Below are positions 1,094 to 63,726 of a stretch of DNA of 64,000 nt, in pieces. Within the stretch, counting starts at the first letter, position 1; each line of letters opens with the position of its first letter. Location: positions 33,862-97,861 of IMG/VR virus record IMGVR_UViG_3300036771_000052, one strand, 5' to 3'. The position numbers and the translations under genes are program-made. Origin of the DNA: a virus. Below the pieces are notes generated by a model, which was not told where the DNA came from, did not search any database, and worked only from the letters and a program-made list of their open reading frames with translations.

Positions 1094-1115
1094 CTTCGGA
1101 GAGAAAGCATGAGGA

Positions 1116-1739
1116 ATGACAGTACCTGAGAACGGTGTCCTGGTGGTACGGAACTTCGTGTTACCGCCGGAGGTGGCGTTGCTTGTTTCCATACTTGACG
1201 CCGCCGACGAACCTACCGAACTTAAGTCGGGAGAAGATCGCCAAATCCTCTTTAAGAGAGGCGTGCGCCGCACAGAGATCGAAGTGTCGGAAAAGATGTC
1301 CGCGCTATTGGAACCCGCTGTTGTCAAGCAGGTTTTAGCTATCCGGGACCGGGTTGCCGCGGCTATGTGCGAGGTTTTCGAGGTTCAGGGGCACAGCAAC
1401 GATTTCAGTGCGCTGGTGGAGATGCGCGAGGGCGATTCTCATCGGCTCCACGCGGACGCCGAGAGGCTCACCCCGAAGGGGTGGCAGCCGAACCATTGTC
1501 CCTGGCGCAGCCTTTCCGCTCTCCTCTATCTCAACACCCAAGGTGTCGACTTCGAAGGCGGCCAGCTGAGCCTTCCCGGGGTTGGGCTGACTCTCTCCCC
1601 TGAGGTCGGGATGTTGGTGGCGTTCACCGCTGGCCGCCGCCACCAACATGAGGTGTGGACGATCACGGCTGGTAAGCGCCGGACGATGCCGGTCTGGCTA
1701 CGAGATGATCATTGGGTACCCGGCGCGCCCACTGAATAG
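1116..1739 (+). CDS. 2OG-Fe(II) oxygenase, prolyl-4-hydroxylase-like
   Basis: HxD (LHAD), LSALLYLN..DFEGG.L, distal His (HQHEV) and 2OG-binding Arg (GKRRT); RBS GAGGA. Confidence 0.85.
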   Translation: MTVPENGVLVVRNFVLPPEVALLVSILDAADEPTELKSGEDRQILFKRGVRRTEIEVSEKMSALLEPAVVKQVLAIRDRVAAAMCEVFEVQGHSNDFSALVEMREGDSHRLHADAERLTPKGWQPNHCPWRSLSALLYLNTQGVDFEGGQLSLPGVGLTLSPEVGMLVAFTAGRRHQHEVWTITAGKRRTMPVWLRDDHWVPGAPTE

Positions 1740-1794
1740 TCCCTCGTTGAGCACCCGAATCGGGGTTTCAGGGGTTTAGAAATCGGGGTTTTTC

Positions 1795-3420
1795 ATGGCT
1801 GAAATAGATGCCGCAACTACGATCACCCCGAATGTGTCCACCGCGGTTACTTACGCGATTTCGCCGGCGTTTGAGGTGGACAGTTCGGGTCCGGTGTTTA
1901 ATCCGTTGTTGGGGTATTGGCAGTCTGATCCGTTGGTGTTGCCGGGGAATCCGGTGACGGGGTCGGTGGTGCGGTGGACCGCGAATGTCCCTGTAGGTAC
2001 GGGTCTTGTGGTGCAGACGAGTATCAATAATGGTGTGTCGTGGGATTTGGCCACGAATGACCAGTCTGTGCCGCGGCTGCTGAATGGTGATACCACTACG
2101 CAGTCGGTGTTGGCGAAGATCACGATGACGAGAGCCACGAGTCCGTCGTTGTTCCCGAGTCCGTCGTTGTTCCCGAGTCCGTCTTTGTATCCAAGTGGTT
2201 CGCCGCCGTCGGTGTCCTACTTCGAATTAGATGTGTCGGTCGACGCCAGCGTTGACGAGCTGGTCCCGATCGGTGTGGGGATGATTGATGATGTCACCAC
2301 CCACGCTACAGCCGGTACGTCCGGTTCCGGTTCAACCACGAATGTTTCCACCTCTACCAGCGTGGTCAGCCAGGGTGGTGGCCAGTTCGGCGGCGGAGTC
2401 GCAATTAAGGTTCATGCTAACGATTTGAGTTACGCGATCAAAAGGAACGTGTGGCAACAACCATATACGGTTCCTAGTGGATTGTTGTACACCGACGCTA
2501 TTAAGGCGATGGTGGAGGATCGTTTGCCGTCGCAGACCGCTTTCAATCTGTCGACCACAACAGCGACTACTCCTCTGTTGGTTTATGGCGCGTCGCAGGG
2601 TGGTGATCCGTGGCAGGACATTATGGAGTTGGCGGCGGCTATCGGGTTCGAAGTGTTTTTCGACGCCACCGGAGTGTGTGTGGTGCGGCCAATTCCCGAT
2701 CCGGGTATCGGCGACCCGGTGTGGGCTTTTGACGAGAATCTTGTTCCGCTGGTAGCGGAGGCGGAATTTGATTTGAGCTCGGAGCAAACATTCAATGACA
2801 TTGTCGTTGTTGGCCAGTCGACTTCGTCGGCTAATCCTTTTTCCGGGGAGGCATTTGATAATGACCCAAACTCTCCGACATATATTTTGGGTCCGTATGG
2901 TCGGGTCACGCAGCGGGTTAATTCGTCTCTGATCACCTCACAGTATCAGGCGCAGGCGATGGCGTATTCCGCTTTGTATGCGTCGCTCGGCGCGGCTAAT
3001 ACGGTGACTTTGACGACTGTTCCGATGCCGGCGTTGGAGCCGGGGGACATCATCTTCATTGTGTGTTCGGATGTGAAAGCGAACGGCACCTATATGATTA
3101 ACCATTTGGAAATGCCGCTTTCCCCCGCTGATCCAGCTATTTACACGTGTTTCCGCCAGTCTACGAGTGGGACGTTGGGGTTGGCCGGTGCGTTCGGCGT
3201 CACCGATGGTGTCACGATTAGTGGTTCCGCGGTGATCACGTCCGAGTCCGCGGGCTTCACTTCGGGTGATATTGGTGCGTCGGTTTATGGGGTGGGGATT
3301 CCTGTGAATGCGACGATCATTTCGATCACCGATCCCGATACCGCGGTGATGTCGGCGAACGCGACCGCTTCGAACACTGATGTGTATTTGGTTGTGAGTG
3401 TCGGTTCCGGCACTCTCTAG
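1795..3420 (+). CDS. Minor tail protein (baseplate hub-like)
   Basis: 541 aa; DPW..I..LA.AIG.EVFFD..G, FNDIVV.G, YGRV and P.LEPGD motifs typical of actinophage tail hub proteins. Confidence 0.7.
   Translation: MAEIDAATTITPNVSTAVTYAISPAFEVDSSGPVFNPLLGYWQSDPLVLPGNPVTGSVVRWTANVPVGTGLVVQTSINNGVSWDLATNDQSVPRLLNGDTTTQSVLAKITMTRATSPSLFPSPSLFPSPSLYPSGSPPSVSYFELDVSVDASVDELVPIGVGMIDDVTTHATAGTSGSGSTTNVSTSTSVVSQGGGQFGGGVAIKVHANDLSYAIKRNVWQQPYTVPSGLLYTDAIKAMVEDRLPSQTAFNLSTTTATTPLLVYGASQGGDPWQDIMELAAAIGFEVFFDATGVCVVRPIPDPGIGDPVWAFDENLVPLVAEAEFDLSSEQTFNDIVVVGQSTSSANPFSGEAFDNDPNSPTYILGPYGRVTQRVNSSLITSQYQAQAMAYSALYASLGAANTVTLTTVPMPALEPGDIIFIVCSDVKANGTYMINHLEMPLSPADPAIYTCFRQSTSGTLGLAGAFGVTDGVTISGSAVITSESAGFTSGDIGASVYGVGIPVNATIISITDPDTAVMSANATASNTDVYLVVSVGSGTL
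2143..2196 (+). repeat. 3 x 18-bp in-frame tandem repeat (PSLFPS/PSLYPS)
   Basis: ccgtcgttgttcccgagt x2 plus a degenerate third copy. Confidence 0.9.
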
Positions 3421-3428
3421 GAGATGTT

Positions 3429-3746
3429 ATGGCTACAGGTTCGGCTATTGCTCGCGCGGCGCGCGCCATCAAGAACGCGAATACCACAAATACGGCGTGG
3501 ATGACACGCTCCGGTGTTTTAACAGTCCACATGGGGACATTGACCAGGGTTGACCCTTTCAACGGGGTGGCGGATTTTCAGTTCCCTGATCCGTCTGTGC
3601 CGATTGTGCAGTCGGTGAGCTACCTCCAGCCGTACAGTTCGACGAACACTCCATCGGTGGGGGATGTTGTTATTGCTCACCAGTTCGGTAACGGTTTCAT
3701 GATTATGGGTCAGCATATTGTTTTGAACGGTTTGGTGAGCATGTGA
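3429..3746 (+). CDS. Small tail protein
   Basis: 105 aa, P.VGDVV motif, RBS GGAGA. Confidence 0.6.
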   Translation: MATGSAIARAARAIKNANTTNTAWMTRSGVLTVHMGTLTRVDPFNGVADFQFPDPSVPIVQSVSYLQPYSSTNTPSVGDVVIAHQFGNGFMIMGQHIVLNGLVSM

Positions 3747-4135
3747 CATCACCTCAGGGTCTGACCACGTTGGTGTATCCGTTGTGTATCCCGCAGGGAG
3801 CGGATTGGCCTGGTATCGATTTCCCGATTATTGGTCCGGATGGTTCGCCGTACGATTTGACGGGGTGTTCGGCGTTGGGTCAGATTCGGTCTTCCCCCGG
3901 GTCGGATCAGTTGTATTTCACGTGGTCCACATCCCCTACCACGGGTCAAGGTTTGATCACCTTATCGGCTAGCGTTCTGAATATCAGGGTATTGGCGGCT
4001 GAGTCGTCTTTGTGGACGTTCGAGTATGGCGCCTACGACATTCTATTAACTAACCCTGCCGCTCCTACGGGTTTTCAGGAATCCCGGGTTGTGATGGGTA
4101 AAGTCATTGTTTCTCAAGAGGTAACGGTTCTATGA
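3743..4135 (+). CDS. Tail-associated beta-sandwich protein
   Basis: IPQGADW, P.DLTG..A..QIR, YDILLT motifs. Confidence 0.65.
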   Translation: MTSPQGLTTLVYPLCIPQGADWPGIDFPIIGPDGSPYDLTGCSALGQIRSSPGSDQLYFTWSTSPTTGQGLITLSASVLNIRVLAAESSLWTFEYGAYDILLTNPAAPTGFQESRVVMGKVIVSQEVTVL

Positions 4136-4308
4136 GCGAAGTTCGTGTTCCCCGTAAATGCATCTATTGCAAGGTTGAAGACACTGAGCCTAAGCATGAA
4201 AATATTTTGCCGGGGTTTGTGTCTGTGTATGCGCATAAGGGTTGTTGCGCGGATGTCACCAATTGTGAGTTGTGCGGTCCTGAGGTCCTGGAAGGGGTTA
4301 ATCAGTGA
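4132..4308 (+). CDS. 58-aa Cys/His-rich protein (not in ORF track)
   Basis: MSEVRVPRKCIYCK...HKGCCADVTNCELCG...; 4-bp overlaps with both neighbours. Confidence 0.65.
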   Translation: MSEVRVPRKCIYCKVEDTEPKHENILPGFVSVYAHKGCCADVTNCELCGPEVLEGVNQ

Positions 4309-4706
4309 GTAATATCGTTACCGTTGAGGCTAACAACATTTTGGGTTCGAGTGTCGCCGGGAGCTCTTACACCGCTCCGACAACGCCGGTGAATTTGGCG
4401 TTGATCACCACTACCACTCCTTCGACCGCTACCGCGGCTGGTAGCGAGGTGTCGGGTGGGTCGTATGCGCGTATGTCCACTGCGGGTATTTGGGGGTCGG
4501 CGTCTAGCGGGTCGATCACTAATTCGGCGGGGTCGGTGAGTTTCACCAGCATGCCATCTTGCACCATCGGCGGTATCGAGTTGTGGGATTCCGCAGGTAC
4601 TCCTATTCGACGTTGGTTCGGAACTTTAACCGGCGGCAGCAAAACTGTGAACAGCGGCGACACCGTCACATTCGCCACATCGAGCATCTCCATCAGCTTG
4701 TCCTAA
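4305..4706 (+). CDS. Small tail fibre-associated protein
   Basis: LAL.T..P....G.EVSGGSYAR...SKTVNSGDT.TF motif common in phage tail regions. Confidence 0.7.
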   Translation: MSNIVTVEANNILGSSVAGSSYTAPTTPVNLALITTTTPSTATAAGSEVSGGSYARMSTAGIWGSASSGSITNSAGSVSFTSMPSCTIGGIELWDSAGTPIRRWFGTLTGGSKTVNSGDTVTFATSSISISLS

Positions 4707-4756
4707 AAGTCTAGGCCGGGTATCCGGTCATCTAATCGGTGGAGGGATGACCGGGT

Positions 4757-7657
4757 ATGGCTATCGCGTTCGTTTCCGTCGGCGCCGTCCCCACTAGCGG
4801 CAGCTTCGGCGCCGGTTCCGTTTCTTGTCCGTATCCTGCTAGTATTGTTGCTGGGGATATTCTGATCCTGTTCGCCGGGATGACTGGTGGCAGCGGAACA
4901 TGGAACACCCCGTCGGGTTGGACGCTTCAACAAAAAAATAACAACATTCTGTCCGATCTTGGTGTGGTGTGTTTCACCAAGGTCGCGTCGGGTAGCGAAA
5001 CCGGCTCGTTAGTTGTTGGTAACGGTGGCACGGCTGGTGTTGAGCATGTGTGTATGCTGCTGTATAGCGGCCAAAACTCCACAACACCTATCGGTAACAC
5101 CGCGCTCGCGGTCAGTACATCCACGAGTACCACATCTCCCACCCAGGGAACTGTTACACCTGGCGCCAGTGATGTGGTGGTCCGCTGTTACATGGTGGGA
5201 CAAGTAACAGGTTCCACTACGGGTACGGTCACGTTCCCGACCGGAACAACTTGGACATCGCGTCTCAACTTCTTCACAAAAACCTCCAGCCACGTAAACG
5301 TCGGCACTATCGTTGTCGATAAAACAGCTGGTACAGACACCGAAACAGTTACGGCTAACTCGGCTGGCGCGTGGGGTGTCATCGACGTTGTTATCCAGTC
5401 GAGCCTCACAGTGTGGAACGCGGCGGCTTCTTTGGCCGCTACCGCCGGATTGTCCGCGAACGCGCATGACACACAACACCCGGCGGCGGCGTTCTCAGCG
5501 CATGGTGCGTTAGCCGCTACAGCGACGGATCACATTCCGGCTACAGCGTCGTTGTCGACGCATGCTGGATTGTCGGCTGCCGCGACCGACACTGTTTTCG
5601 GCGCTGTTTCGATGTCGGCGACAGCTGGGTTGTTGGCCAGTTCCGTTTCGCAGTTCGCGGGGTCGGCGTCGTTGTCCGCGTCGGCTTCGTTGTCGACGAC
5701 AGCCAAAGACATCATTCCTGCTGCCGGGACGCTAGCGGCTAATGGTTCTTTGTCGGCGACACTAGAGGTTGTTGTCCCCGCCGCGGCGTCACTATCGGCG
5801 ACTGCGGGGTTAATTTCAGCCGCCACGGTAACCGAGCTCCCACATGTGGCTCTGTCCACTACGGGGTCGCTATCGGCGACGCCGCGGGCGACCGTCCTAC
5901 CATCGGCGGCGTTAACAGCCTCTACAGGTCTGTCGTCGTCGTCTATCGACGCCAGTCACGGAGTGGTCGCGGCTTCGGCTGTGACTGGGTTGTCGGCCGC
6001 CGCGAAGATCACCGAATTCCCAGCCGTCTCCTTCACCGCATCAGGGTCTTTGACCGCCGCGGTACACGACGCCATCTACCCGATGGTGTCGCTGTCGGCG
6101 AACGCAATTATGTCCGTCCCGGCGGAAGACACCACCCTCCCCGATTCGACATTCACCGCCGCGGCTGGTCTGTCCGTCCTGGCGCATGTCACCGTGTTGG
6201 GTTCGGCGCATCTGTCCGCGACAGCGGGACTTACCGCTAGCGCTCACGCAAGTGTTGTGTCCGCAACAACGCTGTCGGCGACCACAACACTGTCGGCTTC
6301 ACCTGTCGATACTGTTTCAGCGGCTGTTGTTTTGGCCGCGCATGGCGGGTTAACGGCGCAACCCACCGACCTCATCCACACGTCAGTAGCGTTCACCGTT
6401 TCCGCTGGGTTGACGGCGCACGCGGTTGACATTGTTTATGCGGCGGCATCGTTGGCCGCCGCCGGAGGGTTCAGCTCCACCCCAACGGATTTGGCCACAG
6501 TTGGTCTGTCCGCTGTTGCTCATTTGTCCGCTGTTGCAGTCGACACTATCCACGCGGCTGTTTCCTTCACCGCAACAGGGTTGTTGACCGCGACCGGATT
6601 CGCCACCGTTCACGGCTTGTGCGCGATGGCCGCCGCAGCTACTGCGCATGCGTCTTGTCTTGTCAGAACACTCCCAACAGTCGGCTTAACCGCACACGCA
6701 GTATTGACGTCTTCCGCAAGGGACGTCACCTTCCCCGCAGTGGGGTTGTCGACGGCTGCGTCTTTGTTGGCGACGGCTGTTGATGTTGTTCGTCCGCATG
6801 TGGCGTTGTCGGCTTCGGCGAGTTTGTTGGCGTCAGCCACCGATTCCGTCGGCGGCGCCGTCCACCTAGCGTCAACCGCAACACTCACCGCTAACGCGGT
6901 TTCCACTGTTCGACCCGCAACTGTTCTGTCGGCGACCGCGAACCTCACAGATCGAGCGGTCGACACCACCCGTCCAACTGTGGGGTTGACTGCGTCTGCC
7001 GGTTTAGCGGCGACCGCGGAACTCGCTCTCCCCGTCCATGCTGTTCTTACCGCATCGGCTGGTTTGGCAACTGTCGCGGTGGATCACATCCTGCCGACGG
7101 CTACATTGCTGGCCACCGCCGGGTTGATCGCACACCCAATTGTTCGGGTGTTCCCGGCGGTGTTTCTCGCCGCGGCCTCATCTTTTGCTGTTGGGATGGA
7201 TGTTTCGGTCCCGGCGGCTGTGGTGGCCGCCGCGACCGCCGCATTGGATGTGACCGCGACACTCGAAGCGGTCAACAGCATCCACATGGCGGCGGGTACT
7301 TCATTCACCGCCGAAATGCGGGTGATCGCGGTAGCCGGCGCCACACTCGCCGCTCAAACCAACATCACCGCGAACCCGCAACTGGATCATTACCCAGTTG
7401 CGGTGTTGGGTGCGTTCGCTGCGTTAACCGCAACAGGTCATATCCGGTTGTGGGAAGCGTTCTGCAATACACCGCATGTGGTGGCGGGGGTTATCGCGGC
7501 GCAGGCAATCGCATTGGCCGTTGTCCGAGCCGCATACGGCAACCCGGTTGGTGTGACAACCGCCGAGAACGGAACCCCGGTGATACCGGTTCGCGCAGCC
7601 ACCGGGGTTCCATTGGCTGCCACGGATTCCGGTTCGCCATCTCGCGTAGTGCATTAG
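4757..7657 (+). CDS. Long Ala/Thr-rich repeat fibre protein (966 aa)
   Basis: Globular N-terminal domain, then >30 ~20-aa repeats of consensus (S/A)LSATAGL.A. Confidence 0.75.
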   Translation: MAIAFVSVGAVPTSGSFGAGSVSCPYPASIVAGDILILFAGMTGGSGTWNTPSGWTLQQKNNNILSDLGVVCFTKVASGSETGSLVVGNGGTAGVEHVCMLLYSGQNSTTPIGNTALAVSTSTSTTSPTQGTVTPGASDVVVRCYMVGQVTGSTTGTVTFPTGTTWTSRLNFFTKTSSHVNVGTIVVDKTAGTDTETVTANSAGAWGVIDVVIQSSLTVWNAAASLAATAGLSANAHDTQHPAAAFSAHGALAATATDHIPATASLSTHAGLSAAATDTVFGAVSMSATAGLLASSVSQFAGSASLSASASLSTTAKDIIPAAGTLAANGSLSATLEVVVPAAASLSATAGLISAATVTELPHVALSTTGSLSATPRATVLPSAALTASTGLSSSSIDASHGVVAASAVTGLSAAAKITEFPAVSFTASGSLTAAVHDAIYPMVSLSANAIMSVPAEDTTLPDSTFTAAAGLSVLAHVTVLGSAHLSATAGLTASAHASVVSATTLSATTTLSASPVDTVSAAVVLAAHGGLTAQPTDLIHTSVAFTVSAGLTAHAVDIVYAAASLAAAGGFSSTPTDLATVGLSAVAHLSAVAVDTIHAAVSFTATGLLTATGFATVHGLCAMAAAATAHASCLVRTLPTVGLTAHAVLTSSARDVTFPAVGLSTAASLLATAVDVVRPHVALSASASLLASATDSVGGAVHLASTATLTANAVSTVRPATVLSATANLTDRAVDTTRPTVGLTASAGLAATAELALPVHAVLTASAGLATVAVDHILPTATLLATAGLIAHPIVRVFPAVFLAAASSFAVGMDVSVPAAVVAAATAALDVTATLEAVNSIHMAAGTSFTAEMRVIAVAGATLAAQTNITANPQLDHYPVAVLGAFAALTATGHIRLWEAFCNTPHVVAGVIAAQAIALAVVRAAYGNPVGVTTAENGTPVIPVRAATGVPLAATDSGSPSRVVH

Positions 7658-7666
7658 GAGCTATTT

Positions 7667-8812
7667 GTGTCATACCCAACTGACCCGGTACCGAATTGGC
7701 AGGACTCTCCGTCTGCGGCGACACCGCTCGATGCCGCTAATTTGAATGAAGACAGCACCGCAATCCAGCAGTTGCAAACGTATGTGACGACGTTGCAGCC
7801 GCAGATTCCGTTCACGGGTGTTCAAACAGCTAGTACTGTCACCGCCACGGCGAACACGTATGTGTTGGTGTCGACTGCATCGAATGCGGTGACGGTGAGT
7901 ATGCCGGTTGCGCCGCCGAACTTCACTATCGTTGGTATTAAGATGGTCGCGCAGGCCGGTACTAATATGGTGACCGCGCAGCTGGGTGGGTCGGACCATT
8001 TTGATACTGCAACTGGTTCGACGACCGCGACGTTGAAGTTGCTCGGCGCGGCTGGGATTTGGCAGTACAGCTCGTCCACCGCTGTGTGGGTGCGTATCTC
8101 GGATGATTTGCCGTTAGGCCAGCTGGATTTGCGGTATGTGAACTCGGTGACCGCCGCGGATTCGTCGATCACGGTCGCCGGAACAACGGTCGCTCCGACG
8201 GTGAAAGTCGCGCAAGCTAACTTGACGCTCGCCGAATCACAGATCACCGGTCTCGTCGCTAACCTGAATCAAACTAATCAGGGTGGTGGTGTGTGGGGTT
8301 CAAACACGTACGGCAACCAGATGTCTAACATCGGGATCGACGACGCCACCGGCACCTACCTTATGGTTACCGCGTCTAGAACATTGTTGATGCTGATCGG
8401 TCTAGCGCCGGCCGCGACGTATTCCACATTCAAACTGTATGTCACCAATGCTGCGGCGTCGAGTACCTTGACCGCTGCGTTGTACAGTTCTAGCACGCTC
8501 ACGAACACGTCGTGGTCTCGTCTCGGTTCCGGGAACATCACCCCGGTCATCACAGCAAACGGGTTGGTGTCGACAGCTATCTCGTTCACCCTCGCTTCCC
8601 CCGCATATGTGGTGGCGGAAATGGTTCTGACGACTGCCACCAACTTCCCCACCTTCGCGGCGTCCGCTTCGGGTACGGCGGGTTTGTTGAATCCATCTTC
8701 GGGGTGTCCGGTGGCGGCCAACTTGAACGCGTCGTCCGCGCCCGCGGCAACTTTGAACCCGACGACTGGTTTCACAAATATGGCTCAGAAGGTTTGGTGC
8801 GCGCTCGCTTAA
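7667..8812 (+). CDS. Tail fibre/receptor-binding-like protein
   Basis: N-terminal WQDSPS..TPLDAANLN motif, ESQITGL repeat, beta-rich C-terminus. Confidence 0.65.
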   Translation: MSYPTDPVPNWQDSPSAATPLDAANLNEDSTAIQQLQTYVTTLQPQIPFTGVQTASTVTATANTYVLVSTASNAVTVSMPVAPPNFTIVGIKMVAQAGTNMVTAQLGGSDHFDTATGSTTATLKLLGAAGIWQYSSSTAVWVRISDDLPLGQLDLRYVNSVTAADSSITVAGTTVAPTVKVAQANLTLAESQITGLVANLNQTNQGGGVWGSNTYGNQMSNIGIDDATGTYLMVTASRTLLMLIGLAPAATYSTFKLYVTNAAASSTLTAALYSSSTLTNTSWSRLGSGNITPVITANGLVSTAISFTLASPAYVVAEMVLTTATNFPTFAASASGTAGLLNPSSGCPVAANLNASSAPAATLNPTTGFTNMAQKVWCALA

Positions 8813-8851
8813 CCATTATTTCAATCTATTCGAATTTTTGCTAGGACGGCG

Positions 8852-9658
8852 ATGAGTCTCCCCGAGAATGTGAATGTCGTCCGGGTCCGCGGCTACTGGC
8901 TCGACCAATCAGGTCAAGGTACGACACGTTCAATTAACTTCCAGCCTCTGCCATGCGACCTGGTCACCGACAGCGGCGCGTTCGCCTACATTTCCACCAC
9001 AAACACCAGAATCGTACCCGACCCAACAACCGGGTACTTCTACGCCGATTTGATCGCCACGAACGACCCGGACTTGACCCCGTTCACATGGAAAGTGACA
9101 TTACAGGGTCAGCCGCCGTTCACCATCGAAGTCGACTACCAATCACCAACCGTTGACGTCGGTGACGGTGTGATGATGCAGGCGGTGTGGCTAGTGGACG
9201 CCGCCACCACAACAGTCCCACAACCAATTAGTTCTTATTACACCAAAACACAAACAGACGCCGCGATCGCCACCGCTATCGACGGAATAACCCTAGGCGC
9301 AGCCACCTCACTCACGACAACCGCCGTCGCGGCTGCCGCATTGTCGGGACACCAAATCGTCACCCCCGCCGCAAACGGGACCGTGAACTACGCCGACAAC
9401 ACTTCGACACCCTCGGGTGCGCCACTGTGGATGACCACCGCAGCCGTAACACAAGGCACCAGCGCAACCGTCCTCACCGCCGGACCGTGGACCGAACCGT
9501 CATGGACGTGGACACCCGGACCGATCTACCTCGGCGCCGCCGGCGTAATCACCCAGACCGTCCCGACAGCGCCAGCGTTCCTGGCTCAGATCGGCTATGC
9601 CACCACCCCCACGTCGATTGTGCTCGACCGGTGGCCATCAATCATCCTCGCCTCATAA
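8852..9658 (+). CDS. Virion structural protein
   Basis: L.ATNDPDL.P..W.V motif; YYTKTQTDAAI linker; C-terminal W.WTPG.IYLG..G..TQT.P domain. Confidence 0.6.
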   Translation: MSLPENVNVVRVRGYWLDQSGQGTTRSINFQPLPCDLVTDSGAFAYISTTNTRIVPDPTTGYFYADLIATNDPDLTPFTWKVTLQGQPPFTIEVDYQSPTVDVGDGVMMQAVWLVDAATTTVPQPISSYYTKTQTDAAIATAIDGITLGAATSLTTTAVAAAALSGHQIVTPAANGTVNYADNTSTPSGAPLWMTTAAVTQGTSATVLTAGPWTEPSWTWTPGPIYLGAAGVITQTVPTAPAFLAQIGYATTPTSIVLDRWPSIILAS

Positions 9659-9670
9659 GGGAGAGCTTTC

Positions 9671-10183
9671 ATGGCTGGAAACAAATACCTCTCGAATAAC
9701 GCCGGCACGATCACAGAAGTGCACGGGACTCAGGTGTCGGCTGGTGGCGCGAACGCCAACCAGATTCCCGCGTTGAACGCGAGCGGTGTGTTCGACACCT
9801 CGCTGCTACCTACCGGAATTGGCGCAGATACCGCTCAGATCGTCGCTAGCGAAGCTCTCTCGGCTGGTGCGTTCGTGAACGTGTGGAACAACAGCAGCGC
9901 GTTCAATGTCCGCAACGCCGACGGTTCAACCTCCGGCAAGGAGGCACACGGGTTCGTCTTGGCCGCAGTCAGTTCAAGTGGTACCGCCACGGTTTATTTC
10001 GCCGGCACCAACAACGCTGTTACCGGTGTCACTGCGGGTGTGCAGTACCTGTCGTCGTCCGCGGTGGGGGGGTTTAGCTCCACCGCGCCGTCGGGTTCGG
10101 GTCAGACTGTGCAACGTCTCGGCGTTGGTACCACTTCCACGGCGATTGATTTCAATCGGCAAACCCCGATCGTTCTCGCATGA
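9671..10183 (+). CDS. Virion structural protein
   Basis: ASEALSAG.FVNVW...RNAD....KEAHGFV motif of a widespread phage family. Confidence 0.6.
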   Translation: MAGNKYLSNNAGTITEVHGTQVSAGGANANQIPALNASGVFDTSLLPTGIGADTAQIVASEALSAGAFVNVWNNSSAFNVRNADGSTSGKEAHGFVLAAVSSSGTATVYFAGTNNAVTGVTAGVQYLSSSAVGGFSSTAPSGSGQTVQRLGVGTTSTAIDFNRQTPIVLA

Positions 10184-11397
10184 CGACGCGTCGGCCACTG
10201 TATCTCAACGCTGGCCAGATACAGCAAATCGTTGATGGCGACACGCTGCCGAGCGGGATCACAACAAATTTATCGCCAGCTCTAACCCCCACCGCAACGA
10301 AGACATCCGCGTATACGGCTGTTGCGGGTGATCTAGTGGTGTGCAATACCGCTAGCGGCGGATTCACCGTCACTATGCCGGCGGCTGCGGCCGGGACAGT
10401 GATCGCGGTTCGAAAGGACGATACCAGCGCTAACACGGTCACGATCTCCCCTAATGGTGGTGACGTGTTCGGTGCCGTTAACACGGTTAGTTCTCTGACG
10501 TTGGATGTGGCTCGTCAGGTTGTCACGTTGGTGGGGGTGTCGGGGGGATGGATTCTTTCCGGCGGAATTCCGACCCCGCGGACTTTGCCAGATGTGCAGA
10601 TTTTCACCAGCAGCGGGACCTGGACTAAGCCACCGGGTGCTACAACGACCAATGTCATCATAGTTCCCCCCGGTGGCGGCGGCGGTTCCGGACCTCGGCT
10701 CGCTTCCGGTACCGCCAGTTCGGGCGGCGCGAGCGGCGGCTGCGGCGGATGGACGATAGGAACATTCCGAACCGCCGATCTCGGCGCTACCGAATCAGTC
10801 ACAGTCGGCGCAGCAGGCACCGGTGGTGCCGCTGTCACTGCTGACAGCACCAACGGCAATGCGGGAGGCAGCGGGGGCACCTGCCTGTTTGGCACCCCGA
10901 CCAAGATGCGCGCCAGCGGCGGCTCCGGCGGTGGCGGCGGTGGTACTACAACCTCCGTAGCTGGTGGTGTCACTTCAGGCGCCTTTCTTCTGGGCGGCAA
11001 CGGCGCTACATGCACGGCTGGCGGTGTCGGCGCCAACGGCGTAGCCGTCAACTCTGGCGCGACGAGTGGGGGCGCCGGCGGCGGCATTACTTCTGGCGGT
11101 ACTGCGCAGGCCGGAGGAACGGCCGGGTTCGCGCTCCAGATCGGACAAGCCGGTGGCGCCGGTGGTGGTGCTGGTGGCGGCACTGGTGTCGCTGGGGCTG
11201 GCACCGTGACGAACTGTCCCTGCGGCGGCGCTGGTGGTGGTGGTGGTGGTGCCAACACCGCTGGTGCGGGCGGCGCAGGTGGTGCGGGTGGCATCTACGG
11301 CTCCGGCGGTGGCGGCGGCGGTGCGTCGCTGAATGGAAGCAACTCCGGCGCGGGCGGTAACGGCGCTGCCGGCATCTGCATCGTCTTCAGCAATTAG
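10180..11397 (+). CDS. Glycine-rich tail fibre protein
   Basis: FTSSGTWTKP.G followed by GGGGG repeats ending G.GAAGICIV. Confidence 0.8.
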   Translation: MTTRRPLYLNAGQIQQIVDGDTLPSGITTNLSPALTPTATKTSAYTAVAGDLVVCNTASGGFTVTMPAAAAGTVIAVRKDDTSANTVTISPNGGDVFGAVNTVSSLTLDVARQVVTLVGVSGGWILSGGIPTPRTLPDVQIFTSSGTWTKPPGATTTNVIIVPPGGGGGSGPRLASGTASSGGASGGCGGWTIGTFRTADLGATESVTVGAAGTGGAAVTADSTNGNAGGSGGTCLFGTPTKMRASGGSGGGGGGTTTSVAGGVTSGAFLLGGNGATCTAGGVGANGVAVNSGATSGGAGGGITSGGTAQAGGTAGFALQIGQAGGAGGGAGGGTGVAGAGTVTNCPCGGAGGGGGGANTAGAGGAGGAGGIYGSGGGGGGASLNGSNSGAGGNGAAGICIVFSN

Positions 11398-11408
11398 TGG
11401 GGTAAATC

Positions 11409-11789: not shown

Positions 11790-12188
11790 ATGCCGAATCG
11801 ACCTGAGTTGACCTCCAGTCGAATGTGGTATGCCGGGTTGTGGCGCATCGTATTAGGCGCCATCGATTCTCTCTACGGCGGCATCATCCTCTCCGGAGCA
11901 CACGCGAACAGCGCCTACCAGCAAATCCTTGAACGGGTGTGTCCGCTGCAACTTTTCGCGGCGGTCTTGGTGATTGTTGGGTCGCTCCTCATTTCCCGAA
12001 CTTTGAAGTGGGGTGGGGTGATGGGTGCGGCGGTGTGGATGTCTTTCGGGATGGCGTCTTTGGTGACGGTGTTCCAACATACTGCGGAGTCTGATACGGG
12101 TCCGGTGTTGCTGATTGGGTTCGCCATTCTCCATTTGTTGATCACTTATGGCGCTGCTGCTGGTTTGGCGGCGAAGAAAAAAGAGTAA
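11790..12188 (+). CDS. Membrane protein (about 4 TM)
   Basis: Hydrophobic segments, basic C-terminus, RBS GGGAG. Confidence 0.6.
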   Translation: MPNRPELTSSRMWYAGLWRIVLGAIDSLYGGIILSGAHANSAYQQILERVCPLQLFAAVLVIVGSLLISRTLKWGGVMGAAVWMSFGMASLVTVFQHTAESDTGPVLLIGFAILHLLITYGAAAGLAAKKKE

Positions 12189-12197: not shown

Positions 12198-12563
12198 GTG
12201 CCACCTGGAATCAATATCCCAACCAGTGGACCGCTCGCATGGATCGTTGTTGTCACGTCGCTCCTTATCGCGTTCGCTCCGCTGATTGTAGCTCATTTCA
12301 AAAAACCTGATGCTCATGTTGTGTTGCCGGTGACGGCGGCGCAACCACAGCTCGACGCGGGTAATGCGTTACTCGCAACCCTGGTGGCTAATTTGGAGAA
12401 GCGGACGTCGGCGGCGGAGGACCGAGCCAACGACTATATTGGGATAAATAATGAGCTGCGGGAACGTTTAGCTCGCGCGGAGTCTGAGATCGCCGCGTTG
12501 AAGAGTGAGATTGCTGTGTTGACCGCTCGTCTTATGGAGCGAGGAAGGCGTCGGGATGAGTGA
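12198..12563 (+). CDS. TM + coiled-coil protein (lysis-region accessory)
   Basis: One N-terminal TM, heptad-rich C-terminus. Confidence 0.6.
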   Translation: MPPGINIPTSGPLAWIVVVTSLLIAFAPLIVAHFKKPDAHVVLPVTAAQPQLDAGNALLATLVANLEKRTSAAEDRANDYIGINNELRERLARAESEIAALKSEIAVLTARLMERGRRRDE

Positions 12564-13086
12564 CGCTAAGGAACCGCTGGAGCTTCACGAGGATTCCCCA
12601 CCTGCTGATGTCGCCGCGAAAATCGGTGAGCTTTACGCCGAGGTTGTTCAGAAGATGGTGGAGGAAGCTCCGGCGGTTGCGAAGTTGGAGGCGAAGATTG
12701 AGGCCACCAGGATTGTTCGGCGTTGGTATTTGATGGCGGTGTTGGCGGCGGCGATCGTGTCTCTCACAGTGTCGGCGATGGCGTTGAATATTATTTTGTC
12801 TACGCGTACTCAGCAGGCGGCGTGGCATGCCGTTTTCGAGGCGCGGCAGCAAAACTTCACCAGCGATAAGCAGAAGTTGGCGATGTTGAATGACACGTTG
12901 AAAGCGGAGGGGAAAGCGCAGGTCCCGGAGCCGCAAACCCCTCTGGATGCCACCGCGGCTGTGTCGTTGGCTACTGTGTTGTTGCGGAATGGTCCGGTGT
13001 GTCCGGACGCCTCGACGGTGCAGAAGGTTACTTATTCGAGTGGGGTCACGGGTTGGGGTTGTGTGAACGTACCCCCGAAGCGTTAG
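12556..13086 (+). CDS. Single-TM membrane protein
   Basis: Central TM, two C-terminal Cys. Confidence 0.55.
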   Translation: MSDAKEPLELHEDSPPADVAAKIGELYAEVVQKMVEEAPAVAKLEAKIEATRIVRRWYLMAVLAAAIVSLTVSAMALNIILSTRTQQAAWHAVFEARQQNFTSDKQKLAMLNDTLKAEGKAQVPEPQTPLDATAAVSLATVLLRNGPVCPDASTVQKVTYSSGVTGWGCVNVPPKR

Positions 13087-13145
13087 AAGCGTTATATAGT
13101 TTTGGTGACGAGAAATTCTCGGTCCCCGATAGGAAGGTTCCACAA

Positions 13146-13331
13146 ATGCGGCTTCTGGTCGCGGCGGTTCTGGCCGTCGGTGCTCTCGGCGTCGGCGCCG
13201 GCAGCGCAACAGCGCATGATTTCCACCGTCATCACCATCATTTGGGGTGGCGGCTTGGTGAGGTTGTGCATCATCCGTTCCACCTGTTCCATCCGGATCA
13301 TCCGGGATTTCATCATGGAGGACATCACTAA
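13146..13331 (+). CDS. Secreted His-rich peptide (61 aa)
   Basis: RBS AGGAAGG; signal peptide ending ATA; mature HDFHRHHHHLGW...HHGGHH; stop overlaps next ATG. Confidence 0.7.
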   Translation: MRLLVAAVLAVGALGVGAGSATAHDFHRHHHHLGWRLGEVVHHPFHLFHPDHPGFHHGGHH

Positions 13332-14233
13332 TGCGTAAGGTTTTGTTCGCCGTCCTCGCCATCGTGGTGAGTTTCGGCTTGTCTACGGGTGCGGCGTTCG
13401 CGTCGACACCAACCCAAGGCGTCGACTGTTCTACTGGTCAGAGCGGCCTGGTGAATTTGGGTACAACAACGTGTACTAACACGTCAACCGCTACTGGTTT
13501 GACTGGTTTGTTGCCGTCGGTAACTAATCTGTTGGGGGTTCGCCATCGGCCACGCTGGCCATATCCTGGGTTGCCAGCAGGTTTCCCGTCGTTGTATGAC
13601 GGGAATCTTCTTCCGCTGTCCGAGCTGGGTTTGACTGGTGTAAACCAGGATCTAGACGTCTGCGCTTACGGCAATTACAACGCGCTCGACCAGTACGGTC
13701 TGAGGACGTATGGCGGTCGTTGGCGTGGTGTCGAGTCACGTTGGTTCGCGGTTCAACGCGCTGAGCGCATGGCGGCGTTGCGCGCCGCGGCTGGCTGTGG
13801 GAGTACCGCGGTGATTCCGTGGCAGCTCCGTGGGAACGAACTGAACCTCGGCTACTACGGCGGTTCCGGTTTCTACAATGTGTGCGAGTCGCCAACGTTC
13901 GACGGTTTCCAAGGTGTGTTGCGTCCACGTCTGCGTGGCGCTTGGCCAGGTTTCGAACGCCACTATTTGGGTGGTTCCCGTGAGGCGTGGCTGAATTCGT
14001 TCCGTCAGCTTCATGAGCAGGCGGGTTGTAGTCCGTCGGTGGTGGTGGTTCCCGGCGCCACCTACGAGCAGCCGCTCATTGAGCAGCCGCAGGTGATCGA
14101 ACAGCCACAGGTTATCCAGCAGTCGGCTCCGTGTGGGTGTGCTCCCGTTAGCGCTCCGCCGGTTGTTCAACCTGAGGGTGTTCCGGGTGCGGGGAATTCT
14201 GGTTTGGCTCCGGATGCGGTGAGGGTTAACTAA
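13331..14233 (+). CDS. Secreted protein, candidate sortase F substrate
   Basis: Sec signal (AFA), two internal Cys-bounded repeats, EQP-VI repeats, C-terminal QPEGVPGAG motif, adjacent to sortase. Confidence 0.7.
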   Translation: MRKVLFAVLAIVVSFGLSTGAAFASTPTQGVDCSTGQSGLVNLGTTTCTNTSTATGLTGLLPSVTNLLGVRHRPRWPYPGLPAGFPSLYDGNLLPLSELGLTGVNQDLDVCAYGNYNALDQYGLRTYGGRWRGVESRWFAVQRAERMAALRAAAGCGSTAVIPWQLRGNELNLGYYGGSGFYNVCESPTFDGFQGVLRPRLRGAWPGFERHYLGGSREAWLNSFRQLHEQAGCSPSVVVVPGATYEQPLIEQPQVIEQPQVIQQSAPCGCAPVSAPPVVQPEGVPGAGNSGLAPDAVRVN

Positions 14234-14809
14234 ATGCTGCGGGTCCTTCTTTCGGGACTCGCCGCGCTGGTCGGGGTGTCGATGACGTGGTGCGACCCCC
14301 CGGCCTCCCTCGCCGATATGAGTGTGTATCCGACGGGGATTCACATCCCCGCTATCGGTGTTGATGGGAATCAACTTATCCCGTTGGGTTTAGCGAAGGA
14401 CCGCACACTTCAAACCCCACCGTTGTCCACACCACAGATTGGTGGCTGGTACACGGGAGCATCAGTCCCGGGTGATCCGGGAACTGCGATAATCATTTCC
14501 CACGTGGACGGGGACGGGAAGAAGGGTTTGTTTTACGATCTTTCCCGGGTTCAGGTGGGGGACGAGATTTCGGTTGACCGGTCTGATGGTCATATGGCTG
14601 TTTTCACGGTCACTAAGGTGGGGTTGTTTTGCAAGGAGAGAGCCGCGTGTCCCCGGGGGAAGAAAGTTTTTCCTTCCGCGGAGTTTTACTCCACGCAGTC
14701 TGAACCGCAACTTCATTTGGAAACTTGTGGTGGCAGGTTTGATGCGAAAGACAAAAACTATTTGGACGCGTTCGTGGTGTTCTCGACATTGACTGCGAGT
14801 TTCGGATGA
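14234..14809 (+). CDS. Class F sortase
   Basis: IPAIGVD, GWY....PG.PG.A.I.SHVD (His), L.LETCGG.FD (Cys), N-terminal hydrophobic anchor. Confidence 0.9.
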   Translation: MLRVLLSGLAALVGVSMTWCDPPASLADMSVYPTGIHIPAIGVDGNQLIPLGLAKDRTLQTPPLSTPQIGGWYTGASVPGDPGTAIIISHVDGDGKKGLFYDLSRVQVGDEISVDRSDGHMAVFTVTKVGLFCKERAACPRGKKVFPSAEFYSTQSEPQLHLETCGGRFDAKDKNYLDAFVVFSTLTASFG

Positions 14810-15807
14810 TCTTCGATGAGTTGTGGCAGGAGATGCTGTCCCGGAGGGACCCTCAACACACCACTGAGTTCCTTGCTTCTCCTGGCTTGTATGGGATTGA
14901 CACTTCGTCGTGGCAGGGGACGGTTCAGTGGTCGGCGGTCGCGGCGTCGGGTCACCAGCTGGTTTATGTGAAGGCTTCTGAGGGTGCGGGTTTGAGTTAC
15001 CCGACGTTGGATGCGCAATATCGGGGAGCTGTGGCTGCGGGGATGAGTGTGGGGTTGTACCACTTCGCCAACCCCGCTTTGACCCCTGAGGCGAACGCTG
15101 ACGCGTTCTCCACGCAAATCAACAGGTTGGGCGCCACGGTCAATCATTTGCCGCCAGCGCTCGACCTAGAGATTGGTTCTGGTGACTTGTCGGGGTGGTG
15201 TCAAGCGTTCATCGCTCGGCTTCGGCAGCAGATCAACTGGCAACCTGTGTGTGTCTATTCCGATGCGTCGTTCTTCAAAAACCAGATCGGCGAAGAATGG
15301 ATGGACGACGATATTGTTTTGTGGATCGCATCATTCAACAACAACCCCGGCCACCCGTCGTACATGTCTCCTCGGGTGGCGATCCATCAGTATTCCCAAT
15401 CCGGGAATGTTCCTGGTGTGGCGGGTGATGTTGACTTGGACTTTGCGATCTGGCCGCTCAACCAGCTTATCGGAGATGACGACTTGACCCCGCAAGAATC
15501 GCAGATGCTCACCGACATCCACCAAATGCTCCCCGTGATCACCTGGCTATACGGCCAATTCGCCGGCCTCGGACCAGACGGCACACCCGCACCATTCCCC
15601 GACGTCCCAGGATGGGAAACCCTCCCCGGGGGAACAAACCAACACTTGTCATTCCTGGACTACGCTCGACAAGCCAACGTACAGCTAGCCGGGTTGACAC
15701 AGTCGGTACAAAACATTATTTCCACCTCTGGTGGGACGGTGGATGCGAAGGGTTTGGCAGATCAGATCGTCGCCGAATTTGTGAACAAAATCCACAACAA
15801 TGTGTAA
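14806..15807 (+). CDS. Endolysin, GH25 muramidase
   Basis: GIDTSSWQG, YVKASEG, GLYHF, ALDLE, HQYS..G.VPGV.GDVDLD. Confidence 0.92.
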   Translation: MIFDELWQEMLSRRDPQHTTEFLASPGLYGIDTSSWQGTVQWSAVAASGHQLVYVKASEGAGLSYPTLDAQYRGAVAAGMSVGLYHFANPALTPEANADAFSTQINRLGATVNHLPPALDLEIGSGDLSGWCQAFIARLRQQINWQPVCVYSDASFFKNQIGEEWMDDDIVLWIASFNNNPGHPSYMSPRVAIHQYSQSGNVPGVAGDVDLDFAIWPLNQLIGDDDLTPQESQMLTDIHQMLPVITWLYGQFAGLGPDGTPAPFPDVPGWETLPGGTNQHLSFLDYARQANVQLAGLTQSVQNIISTSGGTVDAKGLADQIVAEFVNKIHNNV

Positions 15808-16081
15808 CCACATCCCTGAGGGGATGTGGGCCAGGATTTGGACATGGTTCCTCTCCGCCACGTTGGGGACTTTCGTCGCGGTGGAAACCGTCGCGTTAAC
15901 CCTCGAAGGTTCCCCCGCCACCCTCTCCGCCTACATCCGAACAGTGGCGGGATCGGACCCACGCTGCCATCACGTCCACGCCGGACGCCTAGCGCTGCTG
16001 GTGATCTTCGGGTGGGCTACCGCTCATTTGGGTTGGGGTCTGTTCGGGTACGACCCGCATCATCGGAGGAACAGATGCTGA
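15800..16081 (+). CDS. Small membrane protein
   Basis: Two TM segments, TLSAYIR motif. Confidence 0.55.
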   Translation: MCNHIPEGMWARIWTWFLSATLGTFVAVETVALTLEGSPATLSAYIRTVAGSDPRCHHVHAGRLALLVIFGWATAHLGWGLFGYDPHHRRNRC

Positions 16082-16470
16082 AAAAAATTTGGTCCGCTCT
16101 CTCGCGTGCGGTGACCCGTAACCCGGTGGTGATCTCGGGGGGGTTCGCGGCGCTGTTGCAGTTTGTGTCCACCCAGATTGTTCCGTTGACAGTGGACCAG
16201 CAGGGAACGCTCAACGCCGCCGTGGTGGCGTTGTTGGGGTTCATCGCCGCCGCCGCGGTGTCAGAGGAGAAAGCTGTTCCCGCGATCGCCGGACTCGTCC
16301 AAGCCGTCCTGGCTGTGGTCCTGGCGTTTGATGTTCACATGTCTACGCAGTGGCAGACGGCGGTGATGGCGTTTGTTACGACGGGTGTGGCGATGTTTGT
16401 TCATACTCAGGTGACCGCTAGGGGTGGTCCGCCGAGGGGTCGACACGAGGTTAATTGGATGCGTGGGTAA
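16075..16470 (+). CDS. Holin
   Basis: Start moved to ATG 16075 (RBS GGAGGA); 4 hydrophobic segments, follows endolysin. Confidence 0.75.
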   Translation: MLKKIWSALSRAVTRNPVVISGGFAALLQFVSTQIVPLTVDQQGTLNAAVVALLGFIAAAAVSEEKAVPAIAGLVQAVLAVVLAFDVHMSTQWQTAVMAFVTTGVAMFVHTQVTARGGPPRGRHEVNWMRG

Positions 16471-16584: not shown

Positions 16585-16833
16585 CTACTTACATTGGGTG
16601 ATGGTGCCGGGGAACCCGAACCATCCGAAGACGATTGCGATGGCGCTCCCGCAGGTTGCGGTCCCCACCCCGGATGAACCGGAACTTCCCGAAGACCCGG
16701 AAGAACCCCCGGAGCTTCCTCCCTTGCCTCCGGCTCCGCCGGGACTGGATGCCGCGGATGCGAGTCCGGGTGTGGCGGTGAGTGCGAGTGTGGCGATGAC
16801 GGTGGCGATTAACGCGCGGGTGCTGCGCTTCAT
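16585..16833 (-). CDS. Secreted Gly/Ser-rich small protein
   Basis: Signal peptide (ASA), RBS GAGGAG, two Cys. Confidence 0.7.
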   Translation of the reverse strand: MKRSTRALIATVIATLALTATPGLASAASSPGGAGGKGGSSGGSSGSSGSSGSSGVGTATCGSAIAIVFGWFGFPGTITQCK

Positions 16834-17074: not shown

Positions 17075-17110
17075 GCGCCTCACCCTTCCGGGGTGGGGCG
17101 CTCTTTTTTT
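17075..17110 (+). terminator. Rho-independent terminator
   Basis: GC stem gcgcctcaccc/gggtggggcgc followed by T7. Confidence 0.8.
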
Positions 17111-17953: not shown

Positions 17954-18709
17954 CTAGCCGAAAATGTAGTTCAGAACCTTCTCACCGATCACCTGTTCGG
18001 GTGATTCGATGCGCTTCGCTTCCTCCTTCGCCGCATGGACAGCGTTCTTCAGCTTCGTGATACGAGTGAGAATCTGCTCCCGCTCCGAAACAGGCATCGC
18101 ACCGCTGAACTTCACCCGAGTCCATTTGCCTTCAACGACGACTTCCTGGATGGTGACGAACTGTCCGGGTTGTTTATCCGTCGGCTGGAACACGGTGACC
18201 ACTTTCGGCTGTTGCGTCTGCCGCAAAGTAACCACCGGCTTCGACTTGTACACCCCCCGGCCGGAATCCTCCAACGTCCACTCGGTAGACGCCGAAAGCG
18301 TGGGGATGCGGGTGGCGAACGCTCGCAAATCGTCGAGCCTCTTATCCAGCCACAACAGATACGGCACCGGCGCGGCCTTGATGAGAGTCACCTCACCCAC
18401 CACCACATCAGCCTGCGCTTTACCTGATGAGTTGGTGAAATCTCTAGCCGCGGTGACGTCGAACAGTTCCGCCAACTGCTCCCTGGTGGCGTCGATCATC
18501 TCCTTCACTGTGGACTGGACTCGTTGTTCCTCAGGTACGAGTTCGAGTCCACCTTCCGCCGCCGGGGTGTACTCGCCGCGCATACCTTCCATCAATGCGG
18601 TCGGCTTGTCCAGCGCGTGATACCTTTCGGTCAAGCTCCGCATAACGGTTTTGCGGAGCTCACCTTCCTTCCCGACGATCGCGCCGAGAGTTTTCGGTTT
18701 CCCTGCCAT
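17954..18709 (-). CDS. 251-aa conserved protein of unknown function (recalled as DUF7873-like)
   Basis: LFDVTA.RD.TN...ADVVV, P.PYLL.L.K.L.DL, G.W...KFSGA.P, L..AV..A.EEA, GEKVL.YIFG match a widespread coiled-coil/beta-hairpin family; Pfam label unverified. Confidence 0.75.
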   Translation of the reverse strand: MAGKPKTLGAIVGKEGELRKTVMRSLTERYHALDKPTALMEGMRGEYTPAAEGGLELVPEEQRVQSTVKEMIDATREQLAELFDVTAARDFTNSSGKAQADVVVGEVTLIKAAPVPYLLWLDKRLDDLRAFATRIPTLSASTEWTLEDSGRGVYKSKPVVTLRQTQQPKVVTVFQPTDKQPGQFVTIQEVVVEGKWTRVKFSGAMPVSEREQILTRITKLKNAVHAAKEEAKRIESPEQVIGEKVLNYIFG

Positions 18710-24699: not shown

Positions 24700-25016
24700 A
24701 AGATCAAAGATGCGTAGGGGAGCGTGATCCTCAGCAGTCCTATGTGGACTGCGGTCTGTCCTTAGTGGACGGCTTCGGGACGTGTAGGGGACGCGGCAGG
24801 GTGAGAACTAGCGGGAACTGGAGGGAACCTCGTTGATCCTTATTAAGATGTATAGATGCAGGTGAAGGCCATGATCAGTGTCCGGAGACGCTGGCCACAG
24901 CCTTCCCCATTTTCCCAGTTTCCACTTGTTGAAGAAGTACCCACATCTCAGAGAAAACTATCTCTGACCTGCGACGATGTTATCGTGAAGATCGCTCGGG
25001 ACGCGTCAGGGACGCG
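24700..25016. other. Probable attP
   Basis: Non-coding gap 3' of int; tandem arm-type repeats GGGACGYG x2 at 24777-24795 and 24998-25016; inverted gcaggtga (24858)/tgacctgc (24965). Confidence 0.65.
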
Positions 25017-26146: not shown

Positions 26147-26171
26147 CGGTGTCCTCTCATACACTGGGTGG

Positions 26172-62988: not shown

Positions 62989-63062
62989 CGCGACGTAGAG
63001 CAGCTCGGTAGCTCGCCAGCCTCATAAGCTGGAGGTCCCAGGTTCGAATCCTGGCGTCGCCA
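62989..63062 (+). tRNA. tRNA-Met(CAT), initiator-like (C1:C72 mismatch)
   Basis: Cloverleaf; anticodon arm ccagc-ctCATaa-gctgg; GGTTCGAATCC. Confidence 0.9.
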
Positions 63063-63071
63063 CGAAAGCAT

Positions 63072-63280: not shown

Positions 63281-63282
63281 CA

Positions 63283-63714: not shown

Positions 63715-63726
63715 CTGAATAGACGT

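Follow-up and report, generated by a model that had tools for sequence, protein, structure and literature searches.

A class-F-type sortase encoded with a candidate substrate directly before the endolysin gene of an actinobacterial phage

Introduction

Why should a phage carry a gene for a sortase directly before the gene for its endolysin? The question is raised by positions 13146-14809 of a 64,000-nucleotide stretch of viral DNA, called the window in the following, which is the right-hand 64 kb (positions 33,862 to 97,861) of the linear IMG/VR record IMGVR_UViG_3300036771_000052 (97,861 bp, estimated to be 81% complete). The cassette consists of three translationally coupled genes on the plus strand, encoding a His-rich secreted peptide of 61 amino acids (13146-13331, ATG at 13146), a secreted protein of 300 amino acids (13331-14233), here named p300, and a divergent class-F-type sortase of 191 amino acids (14234-14809), and it lies directly 5' of the endolysin gene. 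A model that had been given only the letters and the open reading frames (ORFs), the sequence-only reading, had described the three genes as tightly coupled, which is borne out by their junctions: the stop of the His-rich gene overlaps the start of the p300 gene (TAATG), the sortase start (14234) is the base right after the p300 stop, and the sortase stop overlaps the endolysin start (ATGA), with 4-nt overlaps at the first and the last of these junctions. By hydropathy, export signals are present on all three cassette products and absent from the endolysin.

The same reading had taken the cassette for a phage-encoded class F sortase with its neighbouring substrate. Profile hidden Markov models, a confident fold model and comparative genomics now support this assignment in its main lines. 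We consider it rather probable that the trio is a self-contained sortase module which is expressed late, together with the lysis genes, and which fixes a protein of the phage's own onto the envelope of the infected cell.

The sortase

The 191-residue protein matches the Pfam family Sortase (PF04203, peptidase C60) over residues 36-183 with 55.4 bits (cut-off 26.6). Class F is by far its best-scoring sortase class, class E reaching 24.7 bits; the class F identity put forward earlier thus stands as far as the best family is concerned, and is weakened by a score under the NCBI cut-off and the loss of Asn179 (see below). AlphaFold2, with 57 relatives, gave a model with a predicted local distance difference test score (pLDDT) of 91.9 and a predicted template-modelling score (pTM) of 0.82, which Foldseek matched to solved sortases of classes A, C, D and E (E 2e-8, template-modelling scores 0.5-0.74); on this model the eight-stranded β-barrel of the sortase fold is present. 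Residues 2-20 form an N-terminal hydrophobic anchor.

The three motifs by which the sortase had been recognized, SHVD, TCGG and CKERAAC (C133-KERAA-C139), are all found in the protein. In an alignment of 57 class F sortases from loci L002-L107, His90 (nt 14501-14503) and Cys165 (in LETCGG, nt 14726-14728) are present in 57/57 relatives, and Gly166 and Tyr176 are invariant too; the Pfam profile aligns His90 and Cys165 with the His and the TC of solved sortases. From the class F signature L-x-L-x-T-C-G-G ... Y-x-x-N-x-V-V the window enzyme has LHLETCGG and Tyr176, while Asn179 is changed to Ala. Arg168 is conserved within the window clade only. Arg116, present in 50 of the 57 sequences, lies off the strand that follows the catalytic Cys, and Tyr176 and Asn179 are the residues conserved on that strand.

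In the tree the sortases of the window, P0002, P0003, L009 and P0005 form one clade (100% in the Shimodaira-Hasegawa-like approximate likelihood-ratio test), which branches from within the cellular class F sequences. Support is weak at the deeper nodes, and the viral sortases fall into at least four groups. The clade is marked by a 9-residue insert (residues 135-145, nt 14636-14668): Lys134 and Phe146 are spaced by 11 residues in the window clade, compared with 2 in 52/52 other class F sortases. The insert was found in 5/5 clade members and in L109, and in 0/52 of the others; in the model it lies in the loop between strands 121-133 and 159-170 (β6/β7), and in most clade members two Cys (Cys133 and Cys139 in the window) bracket it. 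In sortases that have been studied, such as SrtA, the β6/β7 loop reads the sorting motif. The insert probably retunes recognition to the tag of this clade, with its replaceable Thr and its long SGLAPD tail.

The candidate substrate and its putative sorting tag

The middle gene encodes p300, which has a signal peptide and 8 Cys and ends in ...VVQPEGVPGAGNSGLAPDAVRVN. The sequence-only reading had seen in it two Cys-bounded repeats and neither a transmembrane (TM) segment nor a charged tail. The repeats are there as two modules that are weakly alike (23% over 79 aa, E 0.015), and the missing segment and tail were confirmed; past the string quoted as its end, nine further residues follow. AlphaFold2 modelled the modules with confidence as two like helical units (approximately residues 80-155 and 165-235) and left disordered the N-terminal part and a Pro/Gln-rich stalk at 240-280. 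A disordered stalk before the tag, as modelled, would fit a linker that spans the cell wall. Next comes the putative sorting tag P281-E-G-V-P-G-A287-G288 (nt 14171-14194), and past the tag a 12-residue tail of polar or small residues, NSGLAPDAVRVN (nt 14195-14230).

That PEGVPGAG is a tag had been proposed from the letters, and it does align with the class F tag in the p300 family and in about 90 other loci. The family is small, with 13 representatives among 1.84 billion proteins. Its members end in ...VP-x-G-x-x-T-G-D-(G/S)-G, and in the alignment PGAG-NSG stands opposite xxTG-DGS or xxTG-DSG; Gly288 is invariant, whereas A, S, G, L and T all occur at the position of the 'Thr'. Because of this alignment, and because there are cellular tags that read ...AQAG, PEGVPGAG is, judged by its sequence, a diverged class F tag.

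The wider comparison comprised 19 class F loci from IMG/VR, 7 from metagenomes and the best 80 of at least 589 matches in species-representative genomes. The IMG/VR loci came from an alignment-based scan, a single-protein query having given nothing. The strict pattern P-x-G-x-x-x-[TA]-G was looked for in the last 70 residues of the ORF upstream of the sortase and was found in 71/80 cellular loci, in agreement with the earlier statement that class F sortases are usually encoded beside their substrate, in 13/19 viral loci (16/19 with a looser pattern) and in 54/1653 control ORFs. Some of the cellular tags have Ala for Thr, for example PSGAAQAG. Of the 71 cellular substrates, 43 continue past the tag with a hydrophobic segment and an Arg-rich tail, and 27 of the other 28 have only 5-9 residues there; the tags of the phage loci are all tail-less. 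The NCBIfam model NF058571 ('GVDTG sorting domain') describes the tailed form and misses the tail-less substrates scanned, among them p300, which it did not match even at E 10; a tailed cellular substrate (L035) gave 13.2 bits (cut-off 29).

The cellular loci (L028-L107) come in two forms, one with a lipoprotein sortase close behind a tail-less substrate, the other with a membrane-anchored sortase that is separated by approximately 100-250 nt from a preceding substrate, which has a TM segment and ends in RRR. One of the tail-less substrates, that of L028, belongs to the 'choice-of-anchor P' proteins (NF040603, 70.8 bits). The phage substrates of L012, L013 and L022 have an Excalibur calcium-binding domain (DxDxDGxxCE) right before the tag (22-24 bits, cut-off 22).

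In the whole 97.8-kb record p300 is the only ORF with such a tag, and it is therefore taken to be private to this sortase. Its passenger part had no match to a family of Pfam, NCBIfam, PHROG or PADLOC (defence systems) and no neighbour in the ESM Atlas; in the PDB Foldseek found no match at E<=0.001, and the best Z of a wide VIA-align search, 3.9, was at noise level. These negatives leave the fold unassigned, which does not make it a new one. Mature p300 (276 residues) contains no Lys, for which P = 8e-5 at the Lys frequency of the whole window. As a strong signal this could not be upheld, since late proteins have only about 1% Lys, which raises P to approximately 0.06.

Could the enzyme be a decayed or non-catalytic sortase-like protein that merely binds p300? 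A score under the class F cut-off, the lost Asn179 and the change of Thr to Ala in the tag would agree with this. The invariance of His90, Cys165, Gly166 and Tyr176 and the very confident fold model speak against it, as does the clade, which has kept the sortase gene intact and coupled at 50-77% identity; we give this explanation hardly any credence.

The trio in related phages

The sequence-only reading had asked for a survey of phage genomes for the same trio. Such a survey revealed two further IMG/VR phages, L009 (106,197 bp) and L109 (120,119 bp), in which the complete trio is followed by an endolysin and a small membrane protein in the same order. Sortase identity to the window is 58% for L009 and 50% for L109, and p300 identity is 37% for both. 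On the 5' side of the His-rich gene both phages have an adjoining gene for a secreted protein with collagen repeats (L009:6738-7109, L109:5282-5788), for which the Pfam family Collagen scored 30.7 bits in L009 and 22.2 bits, below the cut-off, in L109; that the window has a 59-nt gap in the place of this gene suggests a deletion. The catalytic domain of the endolysin has been swapped, from GH25 in the window to an Rv2525c-like glycoside hydrolase (PF08924) in the two relatives (L009:8501-9373, L109:7614-8513), the C-terminal approximately 140 residues still being related (30% identity to L109). As both the neighbouring genes and the endolysin domain differ in the relatives, the cassette has stayed by the endolysin while its neighbours changed.

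A two-gene module of substrate and sortase is more widespread. PHROG scans of the flanking genes showed that it resides in real phage genomes, with tail genes on one side and the endolysin on the other in L010, L013, L017, L020, L021 and L025 and probably in L011 and L014. Elsewhere it is found between terminase and portal (L018), before the terminase (L019), after the portal (L026) and after the primase (L027). In the 50,697 phage records of GenBank three queries detected no class F sortase, and no PHROG family matches the sortase of the window; together with a recent statement that sortases were previously undocumented in viruses (preprint of 24 October 2026; bioRxiv 10.64898/2026.10.24.761521), this agrees with the earlier view that the cassette is an unusual cargo for a phage.

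The distribution bears on the possibility that the cassette is a lysis helper, the sortase and p300 acting on the wall, whether through competition for lipid II or wall cross-links or through a tethered factor that loosens the wall, and thereby speeding lysis. Adjacency to the endolysin in the window, L009, L109 and L014, and a position close upstream of endolysins in L011, L017, L020, L021 and L025, would be expected of such a helper. In L018, L019, L026 and L027, however, the pair is remote from the lysis genes; there is no tag on the endolysin, and no enzyme-like domain was detected in p300, so that we regard a role in lysis itself as distinctly unlikely.

The His-rich peptide

The first gene of the trio encodes a peptide with an N-terminal hydrophobic segment and a cleavage site A-T-A|H. 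The mature peptide starts with HDFHRHHHH and has 15 His and no Lys in 38 residues, as the sequence-only reading had counted. The peptides of L109 and of the window agree in their signal peptide and in HDFHRH as mature N-terminus (71% over 28 aa), and the L009 peptide matches its C-terminal half (45% over 31 aa). A word-based search of 5.8 billion clusters gave no further homologue, and the sole NCBIfam match, to LpqS, was insignificant (E 0.079). With its 15 His, one of them N-terminal after signal cleavage, the peptide most likely binds metal (Cu, Ni or Zn) as a partner secreted along with the other products.

With such a partner at hand, the sortase could be a protein-protein ligase that joins p300 to the N-terminus of the His-rich peptide (HDFHRH...) or to a second p300, yielding a metal-binding conjugate or a fibre. 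The His-rich gene is the first of the trio in three phages, with the mature N-terminus conserved in two, and p300 could serve as a soluble donor because it has no membrane anchor. Polymers linked via Lys as in pili are, however, at odds with the lack of Lys in both mature p300 and the peptide, and most of the other phage modules do without a His-rich gene. We therefore rate ligation as very improbable.

Timing of expression

Is the cassette expressed late in infection or in the lysogen? It is preceded by a 59-nt intergenic gap (13087-13145) with the direct repeat GCGTTA-GAA-GCGTTA and, before the His-rich gene, the ribosome-binding site AGGAAGG (13132-13138). The hexamer TATAGT, to which the sequence-only reading had drawn attention, does lie in the gap (13095-13100); as a promoter it found little support, a scan for two-hexamer (sigma-70-type) promoters having called none in the gap. 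A separate promoter for the cassette was considered and set aside, TATAGT being weak evidence because the related phages L009 and L109 have no gap at this place. The sole convincing terminator (17075-17101) lies past the lysis cluster. Since the junctions link the cassette to the endolysin gene, and since a terminator comes only after the lysis genes, the gene arrangement points to late rather than lysogenic expression.

The competing explanation is that of a lysogenic-conversion cargo, transcribed from its own promoter in the prophage and equipping the lysogen with a wall-anchored protein and a peptide that binds metal, which would serve metal tolerance, adhesion or phage exclusion. It draws on the gene for a tyrosine integrase (24980-26164, minus strand), on the -10-like TATAGT in the 59-nt gap and on the varied positions of the pair in other phages, a scatter typical of accessory cargo. 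We consider it doubtful: the overlap of the sortase stop with the endolysin start means that the cassette is read together with the lysis gene, it lies on the late-gene strand with no terminator ahead, no two-hexamer promoter was called, and in L009 and L109 the gap is absent, the collagen-like gene abutting the His-rich gene.

Proposed function

For the favoured explanation, late attachment of p300 to the envelope of the infected cell, we propose the following course. Both p300 and the membrane-anchored sortase would be exported, and the sortase would bind the C-terminal tag P-E-G-V-P-G-A|G-N-S-G of p300. Cleavage before Gly288 would free a 13-residue tail and leave p300 as a thioester on Cys165, from which it would be handed over to an amine of peptidoglycan or of the lipid II precursor. 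Shortly before lysis p300 would thus be covalently fixed to the wall by its Pro/Gln-rich stalk, with the helical modules outside the wall. A surface masked or altered in this way might keep later phages, or the progeny once released, from adsorbing to the dying cell and its remains. That hidden receptors prevent superinfection, or save progeny from being wasted on debris, is the most plausible purpose that we can name, and it is a guess. The trio has been kept beside the endolysin in three phages despite identities of 37-58%.

Several points weigh against this explanation. The score with the NCBIfam model class_F_sortase (NF033748), 142.4 bits, is below the cut-off of 166, and Asn179, kept in 52/57 relatives, is Ala in the window sortase. 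A conserved Arg column past Cys165 is missing in the 57 class F relatives; as far as the alignment goes, class F enzymes may use a different third catalytic residue. In p300 the hydropathy scan found no hydrophobic or TM segment and no basic tail after the tag, so p300 lacks the parts by which a substrate is usually kept close to its sortase, and in the tag Ala takes the place of the usual acyl-donor Thr. The passenger domain of p300 had no recognizable fold or function in the searches. The timing of expression is read from the gene arrangement alone. The one class F sortase described as biochemically studied, SrtF of P. acnes, is reported to use LPXTG, going by the citations of Di Girolamo et al. 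(2019) in PMC8225981 and PMC13251363; LPXTG is the motif given for this enzyme in a 2021 review. Finally, a quadruple knockout of class F sortases in Actinoplanes had no phenotype (2026 mBio paper); the same paper states that no physiological role has been established for this class.

A bolder version of the proposal would see in the trio a distinct sortase subclass, in which enzyme and tag have co-evolved as a pair. Braced by a disulfide, the insert in the specificity loop would enable the enzyme to recognize Thr-free X|G-(N/D)-S-G-L-A-P-D tags on anchor-less substrates; late in infection it would graft onto the wall of the dying cell a protein to which the His-rich peptide may have supplied metal or been ligated, and progeny would thereby be spared from loss to debris. 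In this full form we hold the proposal to be unlikely.

The phage and neighbouring genes

The window is part of a large phage of an actinobacterial (high-GC) host. Positions 1-11400 contain tail genes, matched by PHROG tail families, and the tblastn matches of these genes are confined to phages of Brevibacterium, Gordonia, Streptomyces and Rhodococcus. Close relatives of the phage were not found among the 50,697 GenBank phage records by megablast or tblastn. The phage is probably temperate, since it carries the integrase. Four clustered tRNA genes (Met, Met, Pro, Asn) are located at 62989-63879, at the right end of the record. Host DNA on a viral contig was ruled out as the source of the cassette because the cassette sits between tail and lysis genes on the same strand.

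Upstream of the cassette, and also on the plus strand, the hydropathy scan predicted three membrane proteins, one with 3 TM segments (11790-12188), one with an N-terminal TM segment (12198-12563) and one with a single TM segment (12556-13086). They have no Pfam or PHROG match; L009 has homologues of all three in the same order (51%, 46% and 36% identity), and they are probably accessory to the lysis or envelope module.

Downstream lie, on the same strand, the genes for the GH25 endolysin (14806-15807; Pfam GH25 128.8 bits, PHROG endolysin families), which by hydropathy has no signal peptide, for a holin-like membrane protein of 93 aa with 2 TM segments (15800-16081) and for a membrane protein of 131 aa with 3 TM segments (16075-16470). 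This is the layout of a lysis cassette, a GH25 endolysin followed by 2-TM and 3-TM proteins. Within the pair of small membrane proteins (15800-16470) there is a weak match to phrog_3555, and relatives of the 16075-16470 gene are found 3' of the sortase or endolysin gene in L017, L021 and L025.

On the strand opposite to the lysis genes, 16585-16833 contains an ORF of 82 aa whose product has a signal peptide and a long stretch of Gly and Ser (SSGGSSGSSGSSGSSG); its C-terminal part is hydrophobic and flanked by two Cys (TATCGSAIAIVFGWFGFPGTITQCK). It has no Pfam match and resembles a small secreted bacteriocin-like or surface peptide. The 251-aa protein encoded at 17954-18709 (minus strand) has a strong match to DUF7873 (221.6 bits).

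Comparison with known systems

The Llp lipoprotein of phage T5 masks a receptor by binding to it non-covalently. It has in common with the window cassette the proposed purpose, a surface of the infected cell so altered that its receptors no longer capture phage; the likeness is a functional analogy only, since no enzyme takes part, the binding is non-covalent and there is no homology between Llp and the cassette.

SrtF of P. acnes (Cutibacterium), a housekeeping sortase using LPXTG in the accounts cited above, is also assigned to class F; the likeness drawn here is one of class label. In the experimental literature searched, the class F tag was not described, and it is recognized only in a curated NCBI model. 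One phage enzyme with exactly one substrate would be the simplest natural system in which the class F tag could be tested. The paired changes in the clade, the loop insert of the enzyme and the lost Thr of the tag, could show how specificity is set, an insight that would be useful for sortase-based protein ligation.

Huge phages of the gut have been found to encode sortase B together with classical substrates (bioRxiv 10.64898/2026.10.24.761521). There, too, the substrate gene lies immediately upstream, and the phage is proposed to present a protein of its own on the wall of the host. Unlike that of the window, these sortases are of class B and come from phages of Bacillota with genomes above 200 kb, and their substrates have the full signal of PXTG, hydrophobic segment and charged tail, which p300 has not. 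If our proposal is true, actinobacterial phages covalently remodel the envelope of their host, an idea that the 2026 preprint only begins to raise, for unrelated gut phages.

The other IMG/VR phage modules (L010-L027) have in common with the window two coupled genes in late regions, about half of them next to or near an endolysin gene. Most have 1-5 residues after the tag (25 in L014). Their enzymes, in contrast to that of the window, are mostly lipoproteins with a short β6/β7 loop and Asn179, their tags keep the Thr, and a His-rich gene is lacking; the passenger domains differ, some having Excalibur Ca-binding domains.

The chromosomal class F loci of Actinomycetota (NF033748) encode the same enzyme family, with TCGG and Tyr176 at 33-47% identity, in the same gene order of substrate and sortase and with the tag P-x-G-x-x-x-T/A-G-(D/N)-(G/S). 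The copy in the window differs in being located on a phage and coupled to an endolysin gene, with a His-rich third gene added. Its substrate is without the TM segment and basic tail that 43/71 cellular ones have, and its enzyme has the 9-residue β6/β7 insert, Ala179 and a score under the cut-off. What the window adds to the known class F systems is thus a conserved His-rich third gene, an enzyme with an insert and without Asn179, and a tag in which the Thr is replaceable.

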